DNA from: a virus
Direction: 5' to 3' (one strand)
Virus record (IMG/VR): IMGVR_UViG_3300043788_000040
Coordinates: 64,001-128,000 of that record
Length of the DNA stretch: 64,000 bases
The notes under the pieces are model-generated. The model saw only the letters and a list, made by a program, of their open reading frames with translations, was not told the DNA's origin and made no database searches. Below are positions 3,050 through 15,681 of this stretch, one piece after another. The translations under genes were made by a program, and so were the position numbers. Every line of letters begins with the position of its first letter. Position 1 is the stretch's first letter.

Positions 3050-4036
3050 ATGCCTAAGAGAATTTTCCTGCTCGACACGATGTCGCAAGTCTACCGTGCT
3101 TACCACGCGGGGGCGCACCAGCGCATCCAGATGACCACCAAGGCAGGCTTCCCCACGGGCGCAACTTACATCCTAGCCCGCATGTTCAAGAAACTCTTCG
3201 CCGACCACAAGCCCGAGTACATGATCGCCTGCATGGAAGGCGGCTCCGGCGCTACGAATCGTGAGAAGATGTACCCCGAGTACAAAGCGAACAGACGCGG
3301 CGAGACTCCGAACGAACTTACACGGCAGTTCCCGTACATCAACGGCTTGATTGACGCCTACAATCTGAAACGCATCAGCGTGGAGGGGTATGAGGCGGAC
3401 GACATCATCGGAACACTGTCAAAGCAGTTCTACGAGAGCGACCCGGAGAACCAGATTTTCATCGTGACAGGCGACAAGGACATGTTCCAGCTTGTCAACG
3501 ACCGCATCTTCATCGTGAACCCGATGAAAGACCTCCTTGCCGACACGCAGAAGGTTGAGCTTATCGTCGGCGTGCCTCCCGCACTGGTAACCGATGTCAT
3601 GGCGCTGCGTGGCGACACCGTGGACAACGTACCTGGCGCACCAGGCATCGGCGACAAAGGTTCCGTCGCCATCATCAAGCAATTCGGATCGCTGACTGCT
3701 GCCCTTGACCGTGCAGCCGAAGTGACACGCAAGAGCTATCGTGAGTCGCTCCAGAACAACCGGGCGCAGATTGAACTCAGCCACAAGCTGGTCACCATTG
3801 ACCGTGACGCACCCGTGGGAGTCGGCTTGGATCAGTACGTGTTCAACGGGGCTGATGCCGAGGCACTGAAGAAGATTTACGCCGAGCTTGAGTTCGCATC
3901 GCTGCTAAGCAAGGAATCGCTGGATGCGGTTGAAGACTTTGCCGAGATCGTGCAGCCCGAGGCTCCAGCCGTGGTTGACACACGCACGACGATGACCGAT
4001 GACCAAGCGGACAAGCTGATTGACAGCCTGTTCTAG
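3050..4036 (+). CDS. 5'-3' exonuclease / flap endonuclease (Pol I N-terminal-like)
   Basis: YRAYHA, YPEYKANR, EGYEADDIIGTL, TGDKDMFQL, GDTVDNVPGAPGIGDK motifs. Confidence 0.95.
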   Translation: MPKRIFLLDTMSQVYRAYHAGAHQRIQMTTKAGFPTGATYILARMFKKLFADHKPEYMIACMEGGSGATNREKMYPEYKANRRGETPNELTRQFPYINGLIDAYNLKRISVEGYEADDIIGTLSKQFYESDPENQIFIVTGDKDMFQLVNDRIFIVNPMKDLLADTQKVELIVGVPPALVTDVMALRGDTVDNVPGAPGIGDKGSVAIIKQFGSLTAALDRAAEVTRKSYRESLQNNRAQIELSHKLVTIDRDAPVGVGLDQYVFNGADAEALKKIYAELEFASLLSKESLDAVEDFAEIVQPEAPAVVDTRTTMTDDQADKLIDSLF

Positions 4037-4285
4037 GAGTAGACATGCCACAACCGTATCGGTGGTCAGACGGGTACAACCCGAACATTCCGCGTAACTG
4101 CACAGCCTGCGGGGAACTTCTCCTGTTGGAGAACCTATACGTGGACGATGGGTGTCCCTGTAATTCCGCAAGGGGCGTCAATTTCAAGCCCCAGCCGTGT
4201 GATCTATGCCAACTTGACTGTTGTGTCAAGCCGGGGCATCGGCTATCTCAGCTATTCGGCTCCTAAAAATAGTGAAAATCAGTTG

Positions 4286-4314
4286 TTGACAATTTCTCAG
4301 CTACGCAGTATTCT
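4286..4314 (+). promoter_or_regulatory. sigma70-type promoter of Tyr/Leu tRNA array
   Basis: TTGACA-N17-TATTCT. Confidence 0.8.
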
Positions 4315-4323
4315 TTTAGAGCC

Positions 4324-4398
4324 ATGACAAACCTTACCCTATCCCTGACCTTGTATAGCCTGCTTAGCGGGCTTCACGGCGGTGTGTTCATCGGGTAA
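4324..4398 (+). CDS. Leu-rich attenuator leader peptide MTNLTLSLTLYSLLSGLHGGVFIG
   Basis: 24 codons, 7 Leu (CTT x3, CTG x2, CTA, TTG) plus Tyr TAT; lies between promoter and terminator. Confidence 0.75.
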   Translation: MTNLTLSLTLYSLLSGLHGGVFIG

Positions 4399-4424
4399 GA
4401 CAAGAATCAAACCCAGATTAGAAC

Positions 4425-4455
4425 AGCCGCCGAAGTCAGGCGGCTTTCGTATTTT
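4425..4455 (+). terminator. Attenuator terminator hairpin
   Basis: AGCCGCC/GGCGGCT stem then TTCGTATTTT; 5' arm can instead pair with GGCGGTGTGTTC (4378-4389). Confidence 0.75.
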
Positions 4456-4466
4456 ATGGGCAAAAT

Positions 4467-4554
4467 GGAGGGGATGGCACAATGGCGTGCCAGCAGACTG
4501 TAAATCTGCCGACCCTTGCGGTCATGGTGGGTTCGATCCCCACCCTCTCCACCA
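4467..4554 (+). tRNA. tRNA-Tyr(GTA)
   Basis: GGAGGGG/CCTCTCC acceptor, GCAGA-CTGTAAA-TCTGC, long variable arm, TTCGATC T-loop, ACCA. Confidence 0.92.
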
Positions 4555-4569
4555 ATTTTGGAGCATCAA

Positions 4570-4800
4570 ATGAAAGTAACCCAGACGCACCTGATGAGGA
4601 AGACTGAGCAAGGCACCGAGGTCCACACGATATGCTGGCTCGATGTAAAGCCGAATGTGAAGGTTGGCTCAAGGGTGTCCTTAGAGGACTCGCCAAACGA
4701 GTGGTGGACTGTCTTGTCTCAGGGTGGGTTGCAAGACTCCTCAGAGATCAACCGGAAGTGGGGTCTGGACCTGCCGAAGACTCAACGGCTGGAAAGGTAA
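4570..4800 (+). CDS. Hypothetical protein
   Basis: GGAG RBS and ATG at 4570, 76 aa. Confidence 0.6.
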   Translation: MKVTQTHLMRKTEQGTEVHTICWLDVKPNVKVGSRVSLEDSPNEWWTVLSQGGLQDSSEINRKWGLDLPKTQRLER

Positions 4801-5091
4801 AGCGAAAGGGCATTGAGTCCGGCAAGGTCACGGTGTGCAAGCACTGCGACACGAAGCACCCCATGTACGCGAACGGGACGATTTGCTTCATGGCTTTCTT
4901 CTACATCTACGAGCGTGACTTGCTCTGGATGGCAAGTCACGACGGCACCGATGGCATATCGGGCTGGCGTGCGCTAGCGAATGATCTGGGGTTCAAGGAT
5001 GCAAAGATAGACGTGCCTTGGACATTCCCAGACGAGGGTCGTCTGATCCCGTACCGGAGGATCAAGGACGGCAAGTTTTTGAGCAAGTAAT

Positions 5092-5177
5092 GCGAGCGTG
5101 GCGGAATTGGCAGACGCAACAGGTCGAGAGCCTGTCGGTTAACAGCCATGGAGGTTCAAGTCCTCTCGCTCGCACCA
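5092..5177 (+). tRNA. tRNA-Leu(GAG), atypical anticodon loop (C33, A37)
   Basis: Leu-type D arm GTGGCGGAATTGGCAGACGC, ACAGG-TCGAGAG-CCTGT, T arm, ACCA. Confidence 0.85.
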
Positions 5178-5180
5178 AGA

Positions 5181-5291
5181 TTGTCGGGCTAATTCTGTGA
5201 AACGGATGTCGGCAGAACCCCCGGTGACGCGAGCCTAGCTGTGGCAGGCGAATTGACGCCAAGGCGCTTTGAGGCTGTGGTCGCCCGACAA
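5181..5291 (+). ncRNA. Structured inter-tRNA RNA
   Basis: Ends TTGTCGGGC / GCCCGACAA pair; fills the space between two tRNAs. Confidence 0.45.
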
Positions 5292-5298
5292 AGAATTT

Positions 5299-5385
5299 GC
5301 GGATATGGCGGAGTTGGCAGACGCGCTGGTCTCAGAAGCCAGTGGGGTAAAACCCGTGGAGGTTCGAGTCCTCTTATCCGCACCA
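5299..5385 (+). tRNA. tRNA-Leu(CAG) (A37)
   Basis: GCGGATA/TATCCGC, CTGGT-CTCAGAA-GCCAG, variable arm, ACCA. Confidence 0.93.
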
Positions 5386-5388
5386 AGT

Positions 5389-5534
5389 TTGAGAGCGTTG
5401 AGTGGGGGAACTGGCATACCCGGAGCGCCGTAAGGTGACTCCACGTCCCCGAATTGACGGGGGCTGCGGCGCAGCGTGGCGAAGGCAGTGCGGGTTCGAT
5501 TCCCGCCTCGGAAAGCTGCGACAACCGCTCTCAA
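5389..5534 (+). ncRNA. tRNA-like RNA lacking an anticodon
   Basis: TTGAGAGCG/CGCTCTCAA terminal stem, D-arm-like GGGGAACTGGCATACCC, GTAA-capped hairpin, GCGGG-TTCGATT-CCCGC T arm. Confidence 0.65.
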
Positions 5535-5538
5535 GAAT

Positions 5539-5663
5539 TTCGGGCGACTTCGTTGTTCATGACAGCGAAGCAGTGAGTAAGTGGCGGAATATGGCAGACG
5601 CGGCACTTCGGTGCTTGGATGCAAATCCTTGTGGGTTCGATTCCCACCGCTCCATCGCCCGAA
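5539..5663 (+). ncRNA. tRNA-Leu-like RNA with UUCG hairpin in place of the anticodon arm
   Basis: TTCGGGCGA/TCGCCCGAA ends; GTGGCGGAATATGGCAGACGC D arm; GCAC-TTCG-GTGC; GGAT-GCAA-ATCC; GTGGG-TTCGATT-CCCAC. Confidence 0.7.
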
Positions 5664-5679
5664 CGCGTATTGAGGTCTT

Positions 5680-6066
5680 ATGGCGAAGTTTGAAGACCAT
5701 TGCAAGGACTGTGAACGCATCCTCGGCAACAAGCGCGAGGACGTGAACCGCTGGATGGACGAGCTTTTCAAGCAGTACGGACCTCGTCATCGTAGGCATC
5801 GTCACTGCTGGCACGGGGTGCGCACGGCGCTCAAGTTGTTTGGTATTGAGGGTGCGAAAGCTGCTATCATCCATATCGTGCGCGACTGTGGCGAGGTGCC
5901 GAGCCAGCGCACTTACGACGAGACGGCGCTGGGTGGCGGTGGAATTGTCATCGCACCGGAGTACACGTACTCAGACGGCGAAGCGGCGCAGAAGTCGTTC
6001 GCTGATGTAGTGAACAAAGAGTTTGAACGTGCTGCTGGGATAATTGGTAAGGACTGGCAGCAATAA
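5680..6066 (+). CDS. Hypothetical protein, His/Cys-rich
   Basis: GAGG RBS; HCKDC and HRRHRH motifs. Confidence 0.7.
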   Translation: MAKFEDHCKDCERILGNKREDVNRWMDELFKQYGPRHRRHRHCWHGVRTALKLFGIEGAKAAIIHIVRDCGEVPSQRTYDETALGGGGIVIAPEYTYSDGEAAQKSFADVVNKEFERAAGIIGKDWQQ

Positions 6067-6152
6067 GCGCGAGTGGCGGAATGGCAGACGCACTAGCTTG
6101 AGGTGCTAGCGGTGGAAACATCGTGGAGGTTCGACTCCTCTCTCGCGCACCA
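6067..6152 (+). tRNA. tRNA-Leu(GAG), canonical
   Basis: CTAGC-TTGAGGT-GCTAG, G37, ACCA. Confidence 0.95.
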
Positions 6153-6157
6153 AATTT

Positions 6158-6296
6158 GGGGGAATAGCATTGTGGAATGCGCCGGGGGTAACCCGGAGAA
6201 GTCGGTTCGACTCCGACTCTATATTCGGCAGTTGCGTTGTTCCCGACCGGATTGATTCCGGCTCGCGGTGAGCAGAGGGCGATACTTCCCCCACCA
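6158..6296 (+). ncRNA. CCA-ended tRNA-like RNA, no anticodon loop, insertion after T arm
   Basis: GGGGGAA/TTCCCCC-ACCA 7-bp acceptor; D-like GCATT/AATGC; CCGGG-GGTAA-CCCGG; GTCGG-TTCGACT-CCGAC. Confidence 0.7.
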
Positions 6297-6303
6297 AGTT
6301 AGG

Positions 6304-6397
6304 GGAAGCTCCGTTGTGCTGTCGGTTCGACTCCGACGACGTAGGGAAGGGCAAGCCGTGTAGACGGCCCGATTCTCGGAGAGGCACAACGACTTCC
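6304..6397 (+). ncRNA. T-loop-containing structured RNA
   Basis: GGAAG/CTTCC and CGTTGTGCT/GGCACAACG stems; same GTCGGTTCGACTCCGAC T arm as the previous element. Confidence 0.55.
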
Positions 6398-6405
6398 ATA
6401 AGTTT

Positions 6406-6491
6406 GCGGCTGTGGCGGAATTGGCAGACGCGCTAGCCTTAGGAGCTAGTGGCTAATAACCGTGGGGGTTCGAGTCCCTCCAGCCGCACCA
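6406..6491 (+). tRNA. tRNA-Leu(TAG)
   Basis: CTAGC-CTTAGGA-GCTAG, ACCA. Confidence 0.95.
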
Positions 6492-6496
6492 AGCTT

Positions 6497-6571
6497 TGGG
6501 CGCGGAATATGTCGCCGTGGCGGATCGTATGCCGACACGGTGCCCGCACATTCGGGGTAGCGCCCACACCA
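6497..6571 (+). ncRNA. tRNA-sized CCA-ended hairpin RNA
   Basis: TGGGCGC/GCGCCCA stem followed by CACCA; no D or T consensus. Confidence 0.45.
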
Positions 6572-6575
6572 GATT

Positions 6576-6662
6576 GCCGGGATGGCGGAATTGGCAGACG
6601 CGGCGGCCTCAAACACCGTTGCCTTAAAAAGCGTGCAGGTTCGACTCCTGTTCCCGGCACCA
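6576..6662 (+). tRNA. tRNA-Leu(CAA)
   Basis: GCCGGGA/TCCCGGC, loop CTCAAAC, ACCA. Confidence 0.93.
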
Positions 6663-6697
6663 ATTCCAGTATTATCGTGGTAGGGAGCTACACTACC

Positions 6698-7039
6698 ATG
6701 AAAATCTTCACCGCAGTTCTTTTGACTCTGTCGTTCGCCACACTGGCATCAGCCGCGACCATCAAGGCGTTCTCAGTGAACAACGTCGTTCGGGTCAAGG
6801 ACAACATCTACACCGCTGAGAAGTACATCGCCGACACGCACGGGGAAGCCAACGCAGGCGACATCGCCGAGCAGTACATCACGTTCAAGACCGAGGGCTG
6901 CCTACACAACCCCGCTGCCAACACCAGCGCGATCTATGTGACAACCCCGGACGGCGCAAAGCTGATCTTTTCCGATGGCGGCACTTGCACGGTTGATGTC
7001 ATGCAGAGCGACTCCAAAGCGCCTGCCGTCACAAAGTAA
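6698..7039 (+). CDS. Secreted protein
   Basis: Signal peptide MKIFTAVLLTLSFATLASA; GGGAG RBS. Confidence 0.7.
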   Translation: MKIFTAVLLTLSFATLASAATIKAFSVNNVVRVKDNIYTAEKYIADTHGEANAGDIAEQYITFKTEGCLHNPAANTSAIYVTTPDGAKLIFSDGGTCTVDVMQSDSKAPAVTK

Positions 7040-8122: not shown

Positions 8123-8470
8123 ATGAGAATCCTGATTGCTGAGGATCATGAAGTTCTACGTGATCTACTCGCCAATTTATTGACAGCCAAGGGGCACACC
8201 GTCGTCGCCACGAAAGACGGCGAGGAAGCGCTTCGCACCTTCTACAAAGACGACGGCGGGTTTGACTACGTGATCACCGATTACCAGATGCCACGCAAGA
8301 ACGGCGTCGTGCTCATCATGGACATTCGCCGCATGAATCCTGCCCAAAAGTGCATCCTTGTCTCCGGCGATCCACCACAGATGACGGACATCATCCGCAA
8401 AGAAGCTGGCGAGTTTCCGATCCTGACGAAGCCCTACGGCACCGCCGATTTGTTAGAACTGCTCAAGTAA
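8123..8470 (+). CDS. Stand-alone response regulator receiver (CheY-like)
   Basis: ILIAED, ITDYQMP..NG, LVSG, LTKPY motifs. Confidence 0.92.
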   Translation: MRILIAEDHEVLRDLLANLLTAKGHTVVATKDGEEALRTFYKDDGGFDYVITDYQMPRKNGVVLIMDIRRMNPAQKCILVSGDPPQMTDIIRKEAGEFPILTKPYGTADLLELLK

Positions 8471-8518: not shown

Positions 8519-9529
8519 ATGGCGAACCCCTTTGGTAACAGATCAAACGACGAAGCAGAAACCGCAAACACACCTGCACCAACCAGTGCGCAAGGCAACG
8601 CGGCAGCCAAGGCAGACGACGACGATCAGGCGTACTACCACTGGTCAAAGCGTAACGGCCTCTACCGCCCCGTGGGACACACGCAGGACACCGTCCCGGC
8701 TGGCATCTACGAAATAGACAACGACAACTCCGGTTGGTACCTATCCAAGGTGAAGTTCCCCTCCGACGCCCTGCTCCGCCTGCCGGGCATGCCCATTGAC
8801 TATATCCTCGGGCAGATTGACACCTTCTGGCAGCGTGAGAAACTGTTCACTCAGACCGGGCTTCTCCACAAGCGTGGCATTCTGATGTATGGACCCGCTG
8901 GCTGCGGCAAGACCTCAATCATCCGCCTGCTTTGCGACGACATCGTCAACAAGCGTGACGGCATCGTCATCATGGTCACGAACTGCCGTCTTGCAGAGAC
9001 CGCCCTCGGCGGCATCCGCCAGATTGAGCCACGTCGTCCGATCCTCACTATCATTGAGGACATTGAGACATTCATGGGACAGAGCGATGAGTCATCATCG
9101 GCTCGTGCGCTCTTGGCTCTCCTTGACGGCGAGACGCAGATCAACCACGTCGTCCACTTGGCGACGACCAACAAGCCTGACTTACTTGAAGACCGCGTTG
9201 TGAAGCGCCCAGGACGTTTTGATCTCGTCATCGGGCTGAACCACCCCGTCGCCGACGCACGCAAGGCGTACTTGTTCAACCTCCTGCAAGAGCACGTGTC
9301 CGCAGACGAGCTTCAGTCCATGGTGGACGAGACGGAAGGTCTCGGGCTTGCTCACCTACGTGAACTGGTTGCGGCGTCGTACTGCTTGGGGCTGGATCGC
9401 AAAGAGACACTTGCCCGCTTGAAATCCAACTTCAAGAAGAAGCTCAAGAACACCGAGAGCAAGGGCAACATCATGGGGTTCACGACGAACTTCGTTGACG
9501 AGGATGGAAAGGTCAAGCTCAACGACTAG
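8519..9529 (+). CDS. AAA+ ATPase
   Basis: RGILMYGPAGCGKT, IIEDIE, ATTN, KRPGRFD. Confidence 0.92.
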   Translation: MANPFGNRSNDEAETANTPAPTSAQGNAAAKADDDDQAYYHWSKRNGLYRPVGHTQDTVPAGIYEIDNDNSGWYLSKVKFPSDALLRLPGMPIDYILGQIDTFWQREKLFTQTGLLHKRGILMYGPAGCGKTSIIRLLCDDIVNKRDGIVIMVTNCRLAETALGGIRQIEPRRPILTIIEDIETFMGQSDESSSARALLALLDGETQINHVVHLATTNKPDLLEDRVVKRPGRFDLVIGLNHPVADARKAYLFNLLQEHVSADELQSMVDETEGLGLAHLRELVAASYCLGLDRKETLARLKSNFKKKLKNTESKGNIMGFTTNFVDEDGKVKLND

Positions 9530-9531
9530 GC

Positions 9532-10008
9532 ATGAACAGGATCATCCAGTTCGCCTACGAGTACGACTTCCTTTCCAACTTTTACACCACCACTGTTCAC
9601 CTTGACGGCTTGGCATACGCCTCGGTGGAGCACGCATACCAAGCCGCCAAGACTCTCAACCCCGAGAAGCGTCTGATCTTCACGCTGGATAATCCGAGCC
9701 TGACAGCCCGGCAAGCCAAGAAGATAGGACAAAATCTCAAACTGCGCGATGACTGGGATAAGGTCAAAGTTCCGATCATGCGTGAGCTTTTGTTCCAGAA
9801 GTTCTCCGGTGACCTCAAGCAGAAGCTCCTCGCCACAGGGGATGCTTATCTGGAAGAGGGCAACTGGTGGCACGACATCTTCTGGGGCGTATGTCATCAC
9901 AAGATGGAAGGCAAGACCTGCCGTGAGCCGGAGCATAGGCCTTTCGGAGGGAACCACCTCGGGTACCTGCTAATGGACGTCCGTGCCTACCATCCTCCTG
10001 TGCTATAA
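9532..10008 (+). CDS. NADAR (YbiA-like) family protein
   Basis: FLSNFY, SVEHAYQAAK, LLATG..LEEGN..D.FWG, GGNHLGYLLMDVR. Confidence 0.92.
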   Translation: MNRIIQFAYEYDFLSNFYTTTVHLDGLAYASVEHAYQAAKTLNPEKRLIFTLDNPSLTARQAKKIGQNLKLRDDWDKVKVPIMRELLFQKFSGDLKQKLLATGDAYLEEGNWWHDIFWGVCHHKMEGKTCREPEHRPFGGNHLGYLLMDVRAYHPPVL

Positions 10009-10794: not shown

Positions 10795-10823
10795 TTGACA
10801 GTTTCCCGATTTCTTGGTACTAT
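10795..10823 (+). promoter_or_regulatory. sigma70-type promoter of Pro/Met/Phe tRNA array
   Basis: TTGACA-N17-TACTAT. Confidence 0.85.
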
Positions 10824-10876
10824 ATGTGAGTACAAACTAAGCGGCGAAGTAAGCCGCTCATAGGTGCTGCCTTCAA

Positions 10877-10951
10877 ATGAACACGATGCGACCATTTTCG
10901 GGATTCCGACCGTACACGCCACCCAGCGTGCGCGGGGTCGCAAGTCTCTGA
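10877..10951 (+). CDS. Attenuator leader peptide MNTMRPFSGFRPYTPPSVRGVASL
   Basis: 24 codons with Pro CCA/CCG/CCA/CCC, Phe TTT/TTC, Met x2; lies between promoter and terminator. Confidence 0.7.
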   Translation: MNTMRPFSGFRPYTPPSVRGVASL

Positions 10952-10961
10952 CTTAGGAGAC

Positions 10962-10993
10962 AGCCCCCGCGCTGCAAGGCGTCGGGGCTTTGT
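10962..10993 (+). terminator. Attenuator terminator hairpin
   Basis: AGCCCC-C-GCGCT-GCAA-GGCGT-C-GGGGCT plus short T tract; CCCCGCGC can instead pair with GCGCGGGG (10930-10937). Confidence 0.6.
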
Positions 10994-11051: not shown

Positions 11052-11139
11052 CGGGACGTAGCCTCGTAAATGGAAGCGATCTCGCTTTGGAAGCGAGAGC
11101 TTAACCGCCTTGGGAGTTCGAGTCTCCCCGTCCCGACCA
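11052..11139 (+). tRNA. tRNA-Pro(TGG), atypical (long variable region, A37, irregular D arm)
   Basis: CGGGACG/CGTCCCG-ACCA, CTCGC-TTTGGAA-GCGAG. Confidence 0.8.
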
Positions 11140-11168
11140 AGTTTCGTTCGTGAAGTCAACGAACATGT

Positions 11169-11245
11169 CAGGGCGTAGCGCAGTCTGGTAGCGCACTCGT
11201 TTCGGATACGAGGGGTCGCTGGTTCGAATCCAGTCGCCCTGACCA
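11169..11245 (+). tRNA. tRNA-Pro(CGG) (A37)
   Basis: CAGGGCG/CGCCCTG, CTCGT-TTCGGAT-ACGAG, ACCA. Confidence 0.93.
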
Positions 11246-11434
11246 AGTTTGAGAGGCCCGGTGGACGTACCCATCGGCGTAAGTGGGTGGTTACATCCAG
11301 CCTCGTTGAGTGTGAGGTGGAGCGACATACGGGAAGGCGGCTGGCGATCAGCCCCCGGAGTCGTGGTACCGCAAGGTCCATAGTGCTGCCTGCCTAACCG
11401 CTCGCCGGATGGCAGCACGAGTCGCCCATAATTT

Positions 11435-11511
11435 CGGGACGTAGCGAAGCCTGGTATCGCGCACCCTTGGGGTGGGTGAGGCCCCGAGTTCGAATCTCGG
11501 CGTCCCGACCA
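11435..11511 (+). tRNA. tRNA-Pro(GGG)
   Basis: CACCC-TTGGGGT-GGGTG, ACCA. Confidence 0.93.
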
Positions 11512-11639
11512 AATTTTAGTAGTCAAAGGAAGCAATGATGAACAAACAACGCGGCTGGTACACAAGGATTTCAATGTAAGGCACCCTCACGTCCGTTTCG
11601 GTCGGAGGGATACTATCCCTCTGGGAAAGGAGACGGACG

Positions 11640-11825
11640 ATGAAGGTCGTGAAGGTGAAGTTTAACGCCAAGATGTTTTTCGTGAAGTTTGTGTTTTTCG
11701 TTGTTATCGCTGTGGTTGTGATCGCGATCTTCAAGAAGATCGGCGAGTTGGTTACCGCAGCGAAGTTGGTTGAGATGGCAGGCGAGGCTGTAAGCGAGGC
11801 TTTGTCTGAGGCAATCGACGTTTAA
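11640..11825 (+). CDS. Small membrane peptide (61 aa) with sequestered RBS
   Basis: AGGAG RBS; hydrophobic FVFFVVIAVVVIAIF segment. Confidence 0.65.
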   Translation: MKVVKVKFNAKMFFVKFVFFVVIAVVVIAIFKKIGELVTAAKLVEMAGEAVSEALSEAIDV

Positions 11826-11829
11826 GTTT

Positions 11830-11932
11830 TGCAGGTTCGGATTGAGGGGCAGGGTTAATGGCCCTGCTCCGTCCCGTGTGGGTGACCCATTATCACCCTT
11901 AAGCGCCAGTGAAAAGCTGGAGCCTGCGACCA
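11830..11932 (+). ncRNA. CCA-ended cloverleaf-like RNA without T-loop consensus
   Basis: TGCAGGTTC/GAGCCTGCG-ACCA with three internal hairpins. Confidence 0.5.
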
Positions 11933-11936
11933 GTTT

Positions 11937-12008
11937 TGCGGGGAAGTGAATTGGATCACGTCAGCCTCATAAGCTGAAAACCCGGTTCGAATCCGGCGAC
12001 CGCAACCA
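11937..12008 (+). tRNA. Degenerate tRNA-Met(CAT)
   Basis: TCAGC-CTCATAA-GCTGA, TTCGAAT loop, CCGCA-ACCA; acceptor stem mismatches. Confidence 0.65.
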
Positions 12009-12080
12009 ATTTGGGCAGGTAGTGCCTCCGAACGGCGGGCACGTAAAGCGGAATCAACCGCCATCCTAGCCCGACATTTT

Positions 12081-12686
12081 ATGGAACAGTACCCAGAGAT
12101 ACCCGGCGCGAAGAAAGCTCCCCTCGGGGAGAAGTGCATCGCGTTCTACAAGTACGACGGCTCCAACCTCCGGTGGGAATGGAGTCCGAAGCGTGGCTGG
12201 TACAAGTTCGGCACACGGACGGAATTGTTTGCCCCGAACCATCCGCTGTGGGGGCAGGCGGTGCCGCTCTTCAACGCAGTCGGCGACGACATCGTCAAGC
12301 GGGTGCTGGCGAGTGACAAGAAGTTCCGCAACATTGAGCGGATCATAGCGTTCACGGAATTCTTCGGGCCTTCAAGCTTTGCCGGGACGCACGACGAGAA
12401 GGAACAGAAGGAACTCAGGCTCTTTGACGTTTGGCTGTACAAGAAAGGCAGGATGTCCCCCCGGTGGTTTGTGGAGACGTTCGGAGACGCACCCTATGCG
12501 GCTCAGGTGATCTACGAAGGCAACCTGAACATGGAGTTCATCCGCGACGTGCGGACTGGGAAGTATCCGGTGTGGGAAGGAGTCGTGGCGAAGGGCGACG
12601 ACTTCATGGTCAAGATCAAGACCGAGGCGTACATGCTGAAGCTGAAAGAAGTGTACGGTCTGAACTGGGAAAAGTTTTCGGAGTAA
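12081..12686 (+). CDS. ATP-dependent RNA ligase-like nucleotidyltransferase (Rnl2-like adenylation domain)
   Basis: Motifs KYDGSN (I), EFFG (III), LFDV (IIIa), EGVV (IV), KIK (V). Confidence 0.8.
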   Translation: MEQYPEIPGAKKAPLGEKCIAFYKYDGSNLRWEWSPKRGWYKFGTRTELFAPNHPLWGQAVPLFNAVGDDIVKRVLASDKKFRNIERIIAFTEFFGPSSFAGTHDEKEQKELRLFDVWLYKKGRMSPRWFVETFGDAPYAAQVIYEGNLNMEFIRDVRTGKYPVWEGVVAKGDDFMVKIKTEAYMLKLKEVYGLNWEKFSE

Positions 12687-12687
12687 A

Positions 12688-12764
12688 CGGGACGTAGCGT
12701 AGCCTGGTATCGCGCATGCTTCGGGAGCATGAGACCGTGGGTTCGAATCCCACCGTCCCGACCA
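12688..12764 (+). tRNA. tRNA-Pro(CGG), canonical G37
   Basis: CATGC-TTCGGGA-GCATG, ACCA. Confidence 0.95.
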
Positions 12765-12769
12765 AGCTT

Positions 12770-12958
12770 ATGAGCAACAAGGTCAATCATAGACGGAGTG
12801 GGAAAGTTCGGGCGCAGCGCAGCAGGCGTTCGTCTAATCTGGTCAACGACCCGCGCCGGGACATCGGCAGGAATCACAACGACCAACTTTGCCACTCGGA
12901 GTGGAAGAAGATCAAGACGAGAATTGAGCGTCGCAGGTTAAAGGGAGAAGGAAGATGA
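12770..12958 (+). CDS. Small basic protein
   Basis: Arg/Lys-rich 62 aa; TGA overlaps the ATG of the release factor. Confidence 0.5.
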   Translation: MSNKVNHRRSGKVRAQRSRRSSNLVNDPRRDIGRNHNDQLCHSEWKKIKTRIERRRLKGEGR

Positions 12959-13615
12959 TTCTGGAGATAAGAGCAGCGGAAGGAGGCGAGGACGCGAAGC
13001 TCCTCGTTGAAGACCAAGTCACCATCTATGCCCGTGTGGCAACACGGAGGGGTCTTTAGTTTTGAGATTGTGGAGAAGCGACCGGGTCTCGTCGTATTGA
13101 GGATCACGGGCGCTGGGGCGGAAAGCATACTCGCCAACGAATCGGGTGGTCACCGCTGGCAAAGGGTACCGCCGACCGAGAGGCGAGGCAGGGTGCAGAC
13201 GAGCACGATCACCGTCGCAACGTTCGCCGAGGTGGCGACGGAAGAGTTCAAGGTGAACCCCACTGACTTAGAATGGGACACCATGCGAAGCGGGGGCAAG
13301 GGCGGGCAGAACGTGAACAAGGTTGAGTCCTGCGTTCGTGTCACGCACAAGCCGACCGGGCTGGCAGTACGATGTGAGTCCGAGCGGTCGCAGTCACGCA
13401 ACAGGGCGACGGCGCTTGCTACCCTGACTGCCCGGCTGGCAGCAGCGCACCGGGAGCGGGAGCAGGGCGCACAGTCCGCCGACCGGAAGGCGCAGATCGG
13501 CACGGGACAGCGTGGGGACAAGCGTAGGACAATCCGTGAGAAGGACGGGGTCGTGACAGACCACATCCTAAACCGGAAATGGCGATACGCGGACTATGTA
13601 CGTGGGCTGTGGTAA
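12955..13615 (+). CDS. RF1-type peptide chain release factor lacking domain 1, expressed via +1 frameshift at CTT-TAG (13054-13059)
   Basis: Frame 0 MILEIRAAEGGEDAKLL...RRGL*; +1 frame HRWQRVPPTERRGRVQTS and SGGKGGQNVNK; GGAGG 3 nt before CTT. Confidence 0.85.
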
Positions 13616-13618
13616 GAT

Positions 13619-13696
13619 GGCGGTGTAGCTCAGTTGGCTAAGAGCGCTGGTCTCATAAACCAGAGGTCGCTGGTTCGATCCCAGCCACCGCTACCA
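13619..13696 (+). tRNA. tRNA-Met(CAT), elongator type (Ile2 not excluded)
   Basis: GGCGGTG/CACCGCT, CTGGT-CTCATAA-ACCAG, ACCA. Confidence 0.9.
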
Positions 13697-13783
13697 AATT
13701 TTGCAGTACAAGGAGACAACGATGGCTAACCTTAGCAAGACCACTCATGCCGCGTAAGGCGTGGGCGGTCAAAGGAGAACCAA

Positions 13784-14299
13784 ATGTTGTCAGAAATCAA
13801 AAAGGCGGTCTCGCTGTACTTTGAGCCGCTCAAGAAGCTGTTGCAGTTCCGCGTAAAGCGCTGGCATACGGCTATGCGCGGCTGGGACGAGAAGGACATC
13901 CGGGTCATCATCTGTCTTGAAGACTTGATCTGGTACTGGATGGTTTTGGAATGGCTGTTCTGGGACAATGGCACGTACATCTGCCACTGGCTCCATTACG
14001 TCCCGCTTCCAAAATTTATCTGCAACTGGGAGCGTCACTGGGACAAGGACGACCCGGAGTACTTCGCCAAGTTCGGTGATTGGTTCGGCGATGACTTCGG
14101 ATGCCTGTGGCACGTATGGGTCTGTGACCCGTTGTGCCAGTGGGTGTGGAAGCACAAGGATTTCCACAAGGCGTGGCCTCAGTGGGAATTGACGCTGGAA
14201 GAAGCTCGCAAGACGTTTGCCCATGATCCGGCCATTTATGAGTGGGTTGAAAAAGAGCTTGAACAGCACAAGAAGTGGGATGCAGAAAAGGCTGAATAG
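13784..14299 (+). CDS. Hypothetical Trp-rich protein
   Basis: AAGGAG RBS, 171 aa. Confidence 0.65.
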   Translation: MLSEIKKAVSLYFEPLKKLLQFRVKRWHTAMRGWDEKDIRVIICLEDLIWYWMVLEWLFWDNGTYICHWLHYVPLPKFICNWERHWDKDDPEYFAKFGDWFGDDFGCLWHVWVCDPLCQWVWKHKDFHKAWPQWELTLEEARKTFAHDPAIYEWVEKELEQHKKWDAEKAE

Positions 14300-14315
14300 C
14301 GGTATCATATACAGA

Positions 14316-14457
14316 GTGGGAACCCCTCACTAACCTGACGAGGGGAGTTACCTGAAGACGCGGGATGGCCCAAAAGCGCTAGTTACCCGGCAGTCTAGGC
14401 TCTTAATCGCGTAACGGCTGAATAGCCGGAGCCGATGGTAACGGGGTTCTCACGCCA
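14316..14457 (+). ncRNA. CCA-ended structured RNA
   Basis: 11-bp GTGGGAACCCC/GGGGTTCTCAC stem followed by GCCA. Confidence 0.55.
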
Positions 14458-14512
14458 AGTTTTCAGTCCCAGTCCTGTCTGACTGGGTGGTTGCGGGGGC
14501 AAAAATTTCTGT

Positions 14513-14589
14513 CGCGGGATGGAGCAGCCCGGAAGCTCGCTTGGCTCATAACCAAGAGGTCGGTGGTTCAAATCCACCTCCCGCTACCA
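14513..14589 (+). tRNA. Initiator tRNA-fMet(CAT)
   Basis: CGCGGGA start with C1/U72 mismatch, GAGCAGCCCGGAAGCTC D arm, CTCATAA, TTCAAAT, ACCA. Confidence 0.9.
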
Positions 14590-15011
14590 GTTCAACGCCC
14601 GTAGGCTACGAGCCGAGAAGCAGAAGGGCTAGCAGAGTCATACGACCTTATAGGACGGGAAAGCTCTGCAACAGATGTGGCACGGGAGAACCGATGCGGG
14701 GAAGTCGCCTGTAAGTTTCCGTGCCGTCGTTTTCGGTTCCGTGTTCGTTTAAGGCGCAAGCCGGGTTCGTCACGGATTAAAGTGGTGGTCCAACGGAGAC
14801 GCCCCACGCCGAAGTGAGTTAACGCTCTAATACGGGAGCCAATCAATAACTCCCGTGGGGGCAGGTAAGACGCATTCGCTGAGTAATCTCCGGTTATCCG
14901 GTTGGTGCAGCGGTGAAATCGCGAATCATAGCGTCTTCTTAAACCGCCAGCCATGAGGGTCCCTGACGTCGGGTGGTGCAGTACTTCATGGAGCAATTTG
15001 GCGGTACGAGT

Positions 15012-15153
15012 TTCGCAGCGGTGTATTGTACGGTTACTTCATGCAACCAGTAGGTCGCGGGTTCGAATCCCGTCATCCCAACGCTTTACGGGGTGTAGCT
15101 CAGTGGTAGAGCGACAGGTAAGAAAAACGCCGTGCATCTTTGTTCCCTGCGGA
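15012..15153 (+). ncRNA. YrlA-like Y RNA (circularly permuted tRNA-like domain)
   Basis: GCAG-C-GG/CC-CTGC bulged terminal helix; T arm, closed acceptor stem and D arm GCTCAGTGGTAGAGC in permuted order; motif shared with RNAs next to the TROVE gene. Confidence 0.75.
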
Positions 15154-15525
15154 TTAACTTTTCCTCGTTTAGCAAAACGAGGTGGCGCAGCGGAGAAGCT
15201 TTAGCGACTCCGTCAGCCGTTCTCGGACGTAAACCGAGTGGTGGAGGCGGGCACACTGTGCTCGCCCCTCAATGTCAGTTGAAGTACCGACGAGGCACGA
15301 AATGTGTGAACCGTTGACTCGGGAAAAAGACTGGCACCAAATTTGAAGATGTTGTCCCAGTCAAGCTGTCGGACTAAACTCTGGACCCGGAGTAATGGGC
15401 TTGAAAGAAGCCATGCCCTAATAAGGAAGGCTGACAGCAAAAGATTACAATGAAGCTCACGTCCCAACTCGACACGTTTACCACGCCGCTTAAGGCGGCG
15501 CAGTAAACCTATCTGTGTACTGTAC

Positions 15526-15601
15526 CCGGACGTAGCTGATGTGGACTTAGCGCCACCCTGAAAAAGTGGAGATGGGAGTTCGATTCTCCCCGTCCGGACC
15601 A
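15526..15601 (+). tRNA. tRNA with Phe anticodon (GAA) and Pro-like acceptor stem
   Basis: CCGGACG/CGTCCGG-ACCA, loop CTGAAAA. Confidence 0.8.
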
Positions 15602-15603
15602 AC

Positions 15604-15681
15604 GGGGAGCGAGCTAGTCCGGTGATTTAGCGTCCGCCTGAAGAGCGGAAGAATTCGGTTCGACTCCGAGGCTCCCCGCCA
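15604..15681 (+). tRNA. tRNA-Phe(GAA), atypical (G8, G37, G73)
   Basis: GGGGAGC/GCTCCCC-GCCA, TCCGC-CTGAAGA-GCGGA. Confidence 0.8.

Follow-up and report, generated by a model that had tools for sequence, protein, structure and literature searches.

A Putative Leader-peptide Attenuator of a Tyrosine/Leucine tRNA Array in a Phage Clade

The window studied here, a stretch of 64,000 nucleotides, comprises bases 64001–128000 of an IMG/VR virus contig of 170.6 kb, with an estimated completeness of ~54%. Close to its beginning lies an array of tRNA genes, first tRNA-Tyr and then a series of Leu tRNAs, preceded by a compact module of promoter, short ORF, and terminator. In window coordinates, the features of the module and the array are as follows.

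4286–4314, plus strand: sigma-70-type promoter, TTGACA-17-TATTCT, with 10 of 12 consensus matches
4324–4398, plus strand: leader ORF, ATG start, 24 sense codons and a stop
4333–4354, plus strand: region 1, 5′ strand of the predicted anti-antiterminator (single-sequence minimum free energy fold and RNAalifold consensus)
4376–4396, plus strand: region 2, the final seven codons of the ORF, with a core (4378–4389) predicted to pair with region 1 or region 3
4393–4414, plus strand: small inner hairpin across the stop codon, 4393–4396 pairing with 4411–4414
4421–4431, plus strand: region 3, complement of region 2, overlapping the 5′ arm of the terminator
4425–4455, plus strand: predicted intrinsic terminator (regions 3:4), stem 4425–4431/4439–4445, loop 4432–4438, T-rich tail 4446–4455
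4467–4554, plus strand: tRNA-Tyr(GTA), first gene of the array
4571–4800 and a second ending at 5090, plus strand: two small protein ORFs within the array
5092–5177, plus strand: tRNA-Leu(GAG)
5299–5385, plus strand: tRNA-Leu(CAG)
6067–6152, plus strand: tRNA-Leu(GAG), second copy
6406–6491, plus strand: tRNA-Leu(TAG)
6576–6662, plus strand: tRNA-Leu(CAA)

The earlier note, which read this stretch as a leader-peptide attenuator, had described the promoter, the ORF with its codon counts, and the terminator, and all of them lie at these positions. The tRNAs that it named downstream, Tyr(GTA) and Leu GAG (twice), CAG, TAG, and CAA, are found at 4467–6662, with small ORFs interspersed among the Leu tRNAs (5092–6662). 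Within the leader, Leu occupies codons 4, 6, 8, 10, 13, 14, and 17 and Tyr occupies codon 11. The codon types are CTT (three), CTG (two), CTA, TTG, and a single TAT; TTA does not occur, and no Leu(TAA) tRNA was found in the window's contig, so that the paired absence that had been pointed out is borne out by both the codon count and the contig's tRNA list.

Promoters equivalent to that at 4286–4314 occupy the same location in the relatives described below. From the window's promoter, transcription would start at ~4318–4322, which leaves a 5′ UTR of a few nucleotides and a Shine-Dalgarno sequence that is absent or poor; translation of this leader would thus rely on leaderless-type initiation. 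The description of the ORF as “nearly leaderless” stands as far as the short 5′ UTR goes, a length read from promoter spacing only. Further downstream, 27 nucleotides separate the leader stop codon from the terminator stem, which has seven pairs, six of them G–C, and a loop of seven (hairpin −13.7 kcal/mol). Its T tract is broken (TTT, CG, TATTTT) and is weaker than those of the relatives, whose terminator homologues carry better T tracts. The tRNA-Tyr gene begins 12 nucleotides past this tail. Such a gap leaves no space for a promoter of its own, and an unconditional terminator at this place would silence tRNA-Tyr.

Two short motifs recur around the array promoters. An A/T-rich motif (an A run, then TAATTTT) is found upstream of the −35 boxes (window 4266–4285; L004 6962–6975; G001 before 195938), and an AGAG-like motif lies just downstream of the −10. 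They may represent a clade-specific UP element and start region.

Several other elements in the neighborhood deserve mention, all on the plus strand. Just after the second Leu(GAG) gene, 6164–6218 matches part of the Rfam tRNA model (positions 7–64, 29.9 bits) and may be what is left of a decayed tRNA copy. The space between the Leu and Pro arrays holds a stand-alone response-regulator receiver domain (8123–8470), an AAA ATPase (8519–9529), and a NADAR-domain protein (9532–10008). A release-factor gene at 13007–13615, flanked by tRNA-Pro and tRNA-Met genes, encodes an RF-1 domain and only the final part of a PCRF domain, the N-terminal part seemingly lying in another frame. Finally, 15027–15139 matches the Y-RNA-like family YrlA at 45 bits versus a Rfam gathering score of 69 (E = 2e-7), with a tRNA-like module, immediately before the Phe tRNAs, as part of the match.

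A promoter-like site, a short ORF, and a hairpin could, in principle, have come together by chance in an intergenic spacer. Motif scans by themselves fit this explanation, since promoter-like matches (7 observed versus 4.7 in shuffled sequence) and terminator-like matches (13 versus 12.3) occur at background frequency. The case for more than chance thus rests on conservation and on the match between codons and anticodons. As to the former, relatives were found in IMG/VR by searching with the neighboring 5′-3′ exonuclease (~61% amino acid identity). Pattern scans with 14–16 specified bases were also run over viral and metagenome contigs; most of the listed matches were due to chance, and L043, L093, and L282 were, after filtering, the only true new homologues among the matches listed. 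Six distinct modules could be compared, from the window, L002, L004 (genome G001, 332 kb), L043 (G002, 463 kb), L093 (G005), and the metagenome contig L282. Five further distinct contigs therefore carry the module, in answer to the question raised in the earlier note of whether the leader is conserved. In the relatives, promoter, short ORF, and terminator stand directly upstream of the first tRNA-Tyr, and tRNA-Tyr and Leu tRNAs follow wherever downstream sequence exists; in G002, one small conserved ORF, the counterpart of window 4571–4800, sits between the terminator and tRNA-Tyr. Conservation of the whole module in six distinct contigs, together with the recurrence of the same design before other arrays (see below), makes a chance assembly exceedingly improbable.

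The six leaders have 24, 25, 25, 27, 27, and 27 codons, with frame, start, and stop kept throughout. Many of their residues differ, yet CTA, CTG, CTT, TTG, and TAT each occur at least once in all six, and TTA is absent from all six. The peptide is partly conserved, mainly in its C-terminal six residues, and resembles a short hydrophobic helix. In that same part of the ORF, none of the six homologues differs in region 2 even at synonymous sites, which points to selection acting on the RNA.

Outside this group, we found no close isolate among GenBank phages by blastn of 4000–7000 or tblastn of the neighboring exonuclease; the matches there were at the level of tRNAs or of ~35% protein identity only. 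A stricter pattern gave four matches in bacterial and archaeal genomes and no host-borne version. These four were rejected as chance, all lying within an acyl-CoA-synthetase-like coding region with no tRNAs nearby. The element had no counterpart in Rfam among leaders, T-boxes, or other cis-regulatory families, even at E up to 1. In the tRNA-rich isolate Xanthomonas phage XacN1, the tRNAs are interspersed with ORFs and mixed as to amino acid instead of being sorted into arrays, and this phage does not suggest itself as a model system.

The relatives also hold some unusual tRNA genes. Within the Tyr/Leu array of G002, a 90-nucleotide tRNA of class-II length (342299–342388) is called Phe(AAA), an odd combination of body and anticodon. 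CTA-anticodon tRNAs (amber suppressors, labeled “Pyl” by ARAGORN) number two or three per relative (G001 192202–192488; G002 238747–239065; G005 129385–129543), and in G005 a four-base anticodon is called for one tRNA-like gene. These genes suggest amber read-through or recoding in this clade.

The second line of evidence is the relation of the leader codons to the tRNAs that follow them. In the window, leader codons cover all five anticodons of the array, and in the three relatives with defined arrays they cover five of five or six of six; the six Tyr/Leu leaders cover every array anticodon, as the proposal that leader codons should co-vary with array content in related phages had anticipated. 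Of 23 codons in the window's leader, eight are cognate, versus 0.11 in the background (p = 3e-3), and the simulated probability of the anticodon coverage is 0.03. Ser (and Thr) codons, too, are abundant in the Tyr/Leu leaders, which lies outside the model's explanation, and the G002 Tyr/Leu leader is more enriched for codons of the Ser array than for those of its own array. The three classes of tRNA with a long arm are those for Tyr, Leu, and Ser.

The third line of evidence is RNA structure. The complementarity between 4378–4389 and 4421–4431, through which the 5′ arm of the terminator had been proposed to pair alternatively with the end of the leader, is present. In the window, this region 2:3 duplex has a predicted energy of −17 kcal/mol versus a shuffle mean of −11.4. 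The duplex beats shuffles in five of the six sequences (z −2.0 to −5.2), that of L282 being no better than shuffles, and in all six it is stronger than any other window of the ORF paired with region 3. When the nascent transcript was folded so as to end before the 3′ arm of the terminator, all six sequences gave an antiterminator in which the last codons of the ORF pair with the terminator 5′ arm (in the window, 4378–4389 with 4421–4431) and enclose the stop-codon hairpin. This inner hairpin is found in all six homologues, with a loop of varying length. In the untranslated RNA of the window, the minimum free energy fold pairs region 1 with the end of the ORF, 4333–4339 with 4393–4399 and 4348–4354 with 4376–4383.

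The six-sequence RNAalifold consensus contains two anti-antiterminator helices plus the terminator. These two helices connect the beginning of the ORF with region 2 and with the strand of the stop-codon hairpin, their 5′ strands coming from conserved codons 5–9. In the consensus, 88% of cells are paired, versus 31–48% with partners slid, and five pairs are changed on both sides (four of them in the two anti-antiterminator helices); the observed values were reached by 1–2 of 500 column shuffles. With six sequences only, the covariation is modest, and in the second anti-antiterminator helix the window has five of the seven consensus pairs and uses an alternative register. The conserved alternatives are, as modeled, those of the classical four-region layout, 1:2 plus 3:4 or else 2:3. 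The comparison with attenuators made in the earlier note is thereby strengthened: terminator and antiterminator are conserved, and the conserved anti-antiterminator completes the four regions.

We then considered the folds under a ribosome mask, which covered 15 nucleotides before to 13 nucleotides after the first A-site base. In the nascent folds, a ribosome on the Leu/Tyr codons leaves the antiterminator in place (P 0.7–1.0), and a ribosome on the last ~8 codons removes it in most of the six. Five of the six nascent transcripts form the antiterminator even with no ribosome present, and therefore a branch in which absence of translation leads to termination is weakly supported. At equilibrium, the window's terminator has a predicted probability of ≤0.1 with the ribosome at Leu/Tyr codons 6–14 and of 0.7–0.9 with the ribosome from codon 15 to the stop; the value is 0.4 for a ribosome at Leu codon 4 and 0.69 for one at codon 12, which is not regulatory. 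Full-length equilibrium folds produce a clean switch in the window only; in most relatives the terminator wins at any ribosome position. The switch must thus be kinetic, and we rely on the nascent folds.

The same design is seen at other tRNA arrays. G001, G002, and G005 were analyzed as whole genomes alongside the window's genome. In all four, the tRNA genes are grouped in blocks by amino acid, and most blocks have a promoter, short ORF, and terminator of their own in front of them. First, the GNN block (Val, Ala, Asp, Gly, Glu, and Cys tRNAs) has a leader of 40–46 codons that is rich in those codons and covers 13 of 13, 12 of 13, and 11 of 12 anticodons in three genomes, with a further version in L003. 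Second, in the leader of the Ile/Thr/Gln block, 13–15 of 28 codons are cognate (p = 1e-4 and 2e-6). Third, the Ser block of G002 also holds the only Leu(TAA) tRNA, and its leader contains TCC, TCA, TCG, TCT, AGT, and AGC together with a single TTA (p = 7e-5). This TTA, before a block with Leu(TAA), is the positive counterpart to the missing TTA and Leu(TAA) of the Tyr/Leu module. Fourth, the leader of the Trp/His/Arg/Asn/Gln/Cys/Lys block lines up Lys, His, Asn, Arg, Gln, and Trp codons. Finally, the window itself contains another such module:

10795–10989, plus strand: Pro/Met module, with promoter (10795–10823), 24-codon leader ORF (10877–10951), and hairpin (10962–10989)

Its ORF, which has four Pro codons, an extra Met codon, and two Phe codons, is conserved in G001, G002, and G005, and the module precedes the Pro/Met (and Phe) tRNAs at 11052–15681. 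The hairpin has a poor T tract, and the G002 counterpart has no room for a terminator.

Two further observations concern this part of the window. The first tRNA-Pro(TGG), at 11052–11139 (plus strand), is unusually long, with 88 nucleotides and its anticodon at position 37 (81–90 nucleotides in relatives), and may be an extended or intron-bearing tRNA. A conserved ORF of 17–20 codons (window 15450–15506, plus strand) lies directly before two Phe tRNAs in four genomes. With a single conserved TTT (Phe) codon, no significant enrichment, and no clear terminator, we did not count it as an attenuator.

The leaders of different arrays have no sequence relation to one another, yet most share the architecture: in most of the other-array leaders, the terminator 5′ arm finds its partner in the 3′ part of the ORF, and this pairing is lost only when the ribosome sits on the distal ORF. 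Each leader was then scored against each array of its own genome, with normalization to codon usage. The true assignment of leaders to arrays ranks first of 120 in G002, first of 24 in G001, and first of 6 in each of the other two. Co-variation of leader and array, which had been suggested as a check, thus extends to the non-homologous leaders of the GNN, Pro/Met, Ile/Thr/Gln, Ser(+Leu-TAA), and Trp/His/Arg/Asn/Gln/Lys arrays, each of which matches its own array. These matched leaders at other arrays are the strongest evidence for attenuation.

These results bear on two explanations in which codons are not sensed. In the first, the short ORF encodes a functional hydrophobic micropeptide and the terminator is constitutively leaky, setting the ratio of mRNA to tRNA precursor. 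The partial conservation of the peptide and its likeness to a short hydrophobic helix would suit such a function, and short ORFs are common in phages. However, the conservation at the C terminus reaches every synonymous position, as expected for selection at the RNA level, and the other residues vary while the set of Leu/Tyr codon types stays. A micropeptide also does not account for five unrelated leaders that fit their own arrays, with the true assignment ranking first of 120, nor for a conserved structure that competes with the terminator. We thus regard this explanation as quite unlikely. In the second, the element is a translation-independent RNA switch that responds to a protein, to a tRNA as in T-boxes, or to another ligand, or else it is a platform for processing of the tRNA precursor, and the reading frame is a by-product. 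Conserved helices do cover most of the element, and the window lacks a clear Shine-Dalgarno sequence. But most relatives have one 5–8 nucleotides before the ATG, and frame, start, and stop have survived whole-codon changes in length, from 24 to 27 codons, among the six sequences. The codon content, moreover, fits the array in six independent leader classes, and the Rfam search returned no family, T-box included. This second explanation seems unlikely as well.

Thus, on sequence and folding models, we think it quite likely that the Tyr/Leu module controls a tRNA operon through ribosome-mediated (leader-peptide) attenuation of transcription, of the trp/leu/ilv type. The regulated operon would consist of tRNA-Tyr, four Leu isoacceptor species, and a few small ORFs. 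From the same data we infer that the leader is translated, that transcription terminates, that stalling permits read-through, and that a physiological state triggers it, as follows. Transcription would begin from the promoter at 4286–4314, and the 24-codon leader would be translated immediately. A ribosome that proceeds to the stop codon would cover region 2 (4376–4396); the terminator (4425–4455) would then form, and transcription would end 12 nucleotides before tRNA-Tyr. If charged tRNA is scarce, the ribosome would stall at a Leu or Tyr codon (codons 4–14), covering region 1 and leaving region 2 free; region 2 would then pair with region 3 (4421–4431), no terminator would form, and polymerase would enter the array. 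If no ribosome is loaded, regions 1:2 and 3:4 could both form, leading to termination. Because the leader has at least one codon for each anticodon of the array, shortage of any single species would open the gate. The tRNAs produced would relieve the stall and close the gate again, giving negative feedback for each block of tRNAs.

The direction of this response is taken from fold models, and leader ORF and intrinsic terminator are both present, as they would be in a device with the reversed logic of pyrBI, where a closely following ribosome suppresses the terminator and good decoding turns the array on. Such a reversal is very unlikely here. The stop codon lies 27 nucleotides before the stem, whereas a terminating ribosome reaches ~13 nucleotides and would be unable to cover it; instead, it would cover the antiterminator strand. 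Further, the reversed logic would create a positive feedback on tRNA supply that is without evident use.

As to the trigger of attenuation, the earlier note had pointed to cleavage or depletion of host tRNAs. This may plausibly be so, and simple autoregulation of supply would fit equally well.

The usual view of phage tRNA genes is that of a fixed set that compensates for codon-usage mismatch, host shut-off, or tRNA-cleaving defenses. To our knowledge, essentially nothing is known of how their expression is controlled, and we know of such a feedback loop in bacteria only for amino acid synthesis and for one synthetase operon. The earlier note knew of no described attenuator of tRNA genes. A full-text literature search agrees within its coverage, yielding no published case in which tRNA genes, or the tRNA arrays of phages, are controlled by attenuation; that coverage is incomplete, and such an absence is not proof. 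The tRNA genes would be a new target class of attenuation.

Taken together, the arrays of this clade of giant phages probably form a codon-resolved supply-and-demand system. In it, the tRNA genes of one codon family would make up a block, a leader listing the anticodons of that block would act as its gate, and the phage would use the ribosomes of its host to gauge which decoding capacities run short and top up only those; this would be the first attenuation in which the sensed molecule, tRNA, is also the output. If so, the phage would sense the speed of decoding codon by codon and feed it back directly onto tRNA synthesis, which would explain both why the tRNAs are sorted by amino acid and why a terminator stands a few nucleotides before the first of them. 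The leader would then serve as a “table of contents” of its array, so that the tRNAs sharing a transcription unit could be predicted from sequence only. The elements could also provide compact, orthogonal, codon-specific sensors for synthetic biology. Because the promoters are sigma-70-like, the hypothesis may be testable in Escherichia coli.

Among known systems, the phage element can be compared with leader-peptide attenuators of three kinds and with one class of riboswitch. First, the leader of ilvGMEDA senses Ile, Leu, and Val, and the thr leader senses Thr and Ile. Like the phage element, both have a promoter-proximal short ORF that mixes codons of several amino acids and a choice between regions 1:2 plus 3:4 and region 2:3 that is decided by the position of the ribosome, any sensed shortage opening the gate. 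In contrast to them, the phage element would regulate tRNAs rather than biosynthetic enzymes, is carried by a phage, and has one or a few codons per anticodon instead of long runs of a single codon; it shares no sequence similarity with them and has no Rfam leader match. Second, leuL and trpL resemble it in having a short leader, a Rho-independent terminator, and an antiterminator that overlaps the terminator and draws its 5′ strand from the end of the ORF, and leuL also in the Leu codons of its short leader. However, leuL has four consecutive Leu codons, mostly of one rare type, whereas the phage leader intersperses seven Leu codons of four types with one Tyr codon, has almost no 5′ UTR, and is directed at tRNA genes. 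Third, pheM of pheST is, like the phage element, a leader-peptide attenuator acting on the translation apparatus and not on biosynthesis, but its target is the synthetase for one amino acid, and that of the phage element would be a tRNA array of several species. Finally, T-box riboswitches likewise report the state of specific tRNAs through a choice between terminator and antiterminator. They do so independently of translation, by binding uncharged tRNA directly through a specifier loop and the T-box motif, in contrast to the phage element, which has a conserved, putatively translated frame and no match to the T-box family of Rfam. With its promoter-proximal ORF, its enrichment in cognate codons, and its predicted terminator, antiterminator, and anti-antiterminator, the phage element has the parts of an attenuator, and the genes behind it are tRNAs and small ORFs, not biosynthetic or synthetase genes. 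In its modeled behavior, it works like trpL, leuL, hisL, thrL, ilvL, pheL, and pheM but is a member of none of those families.
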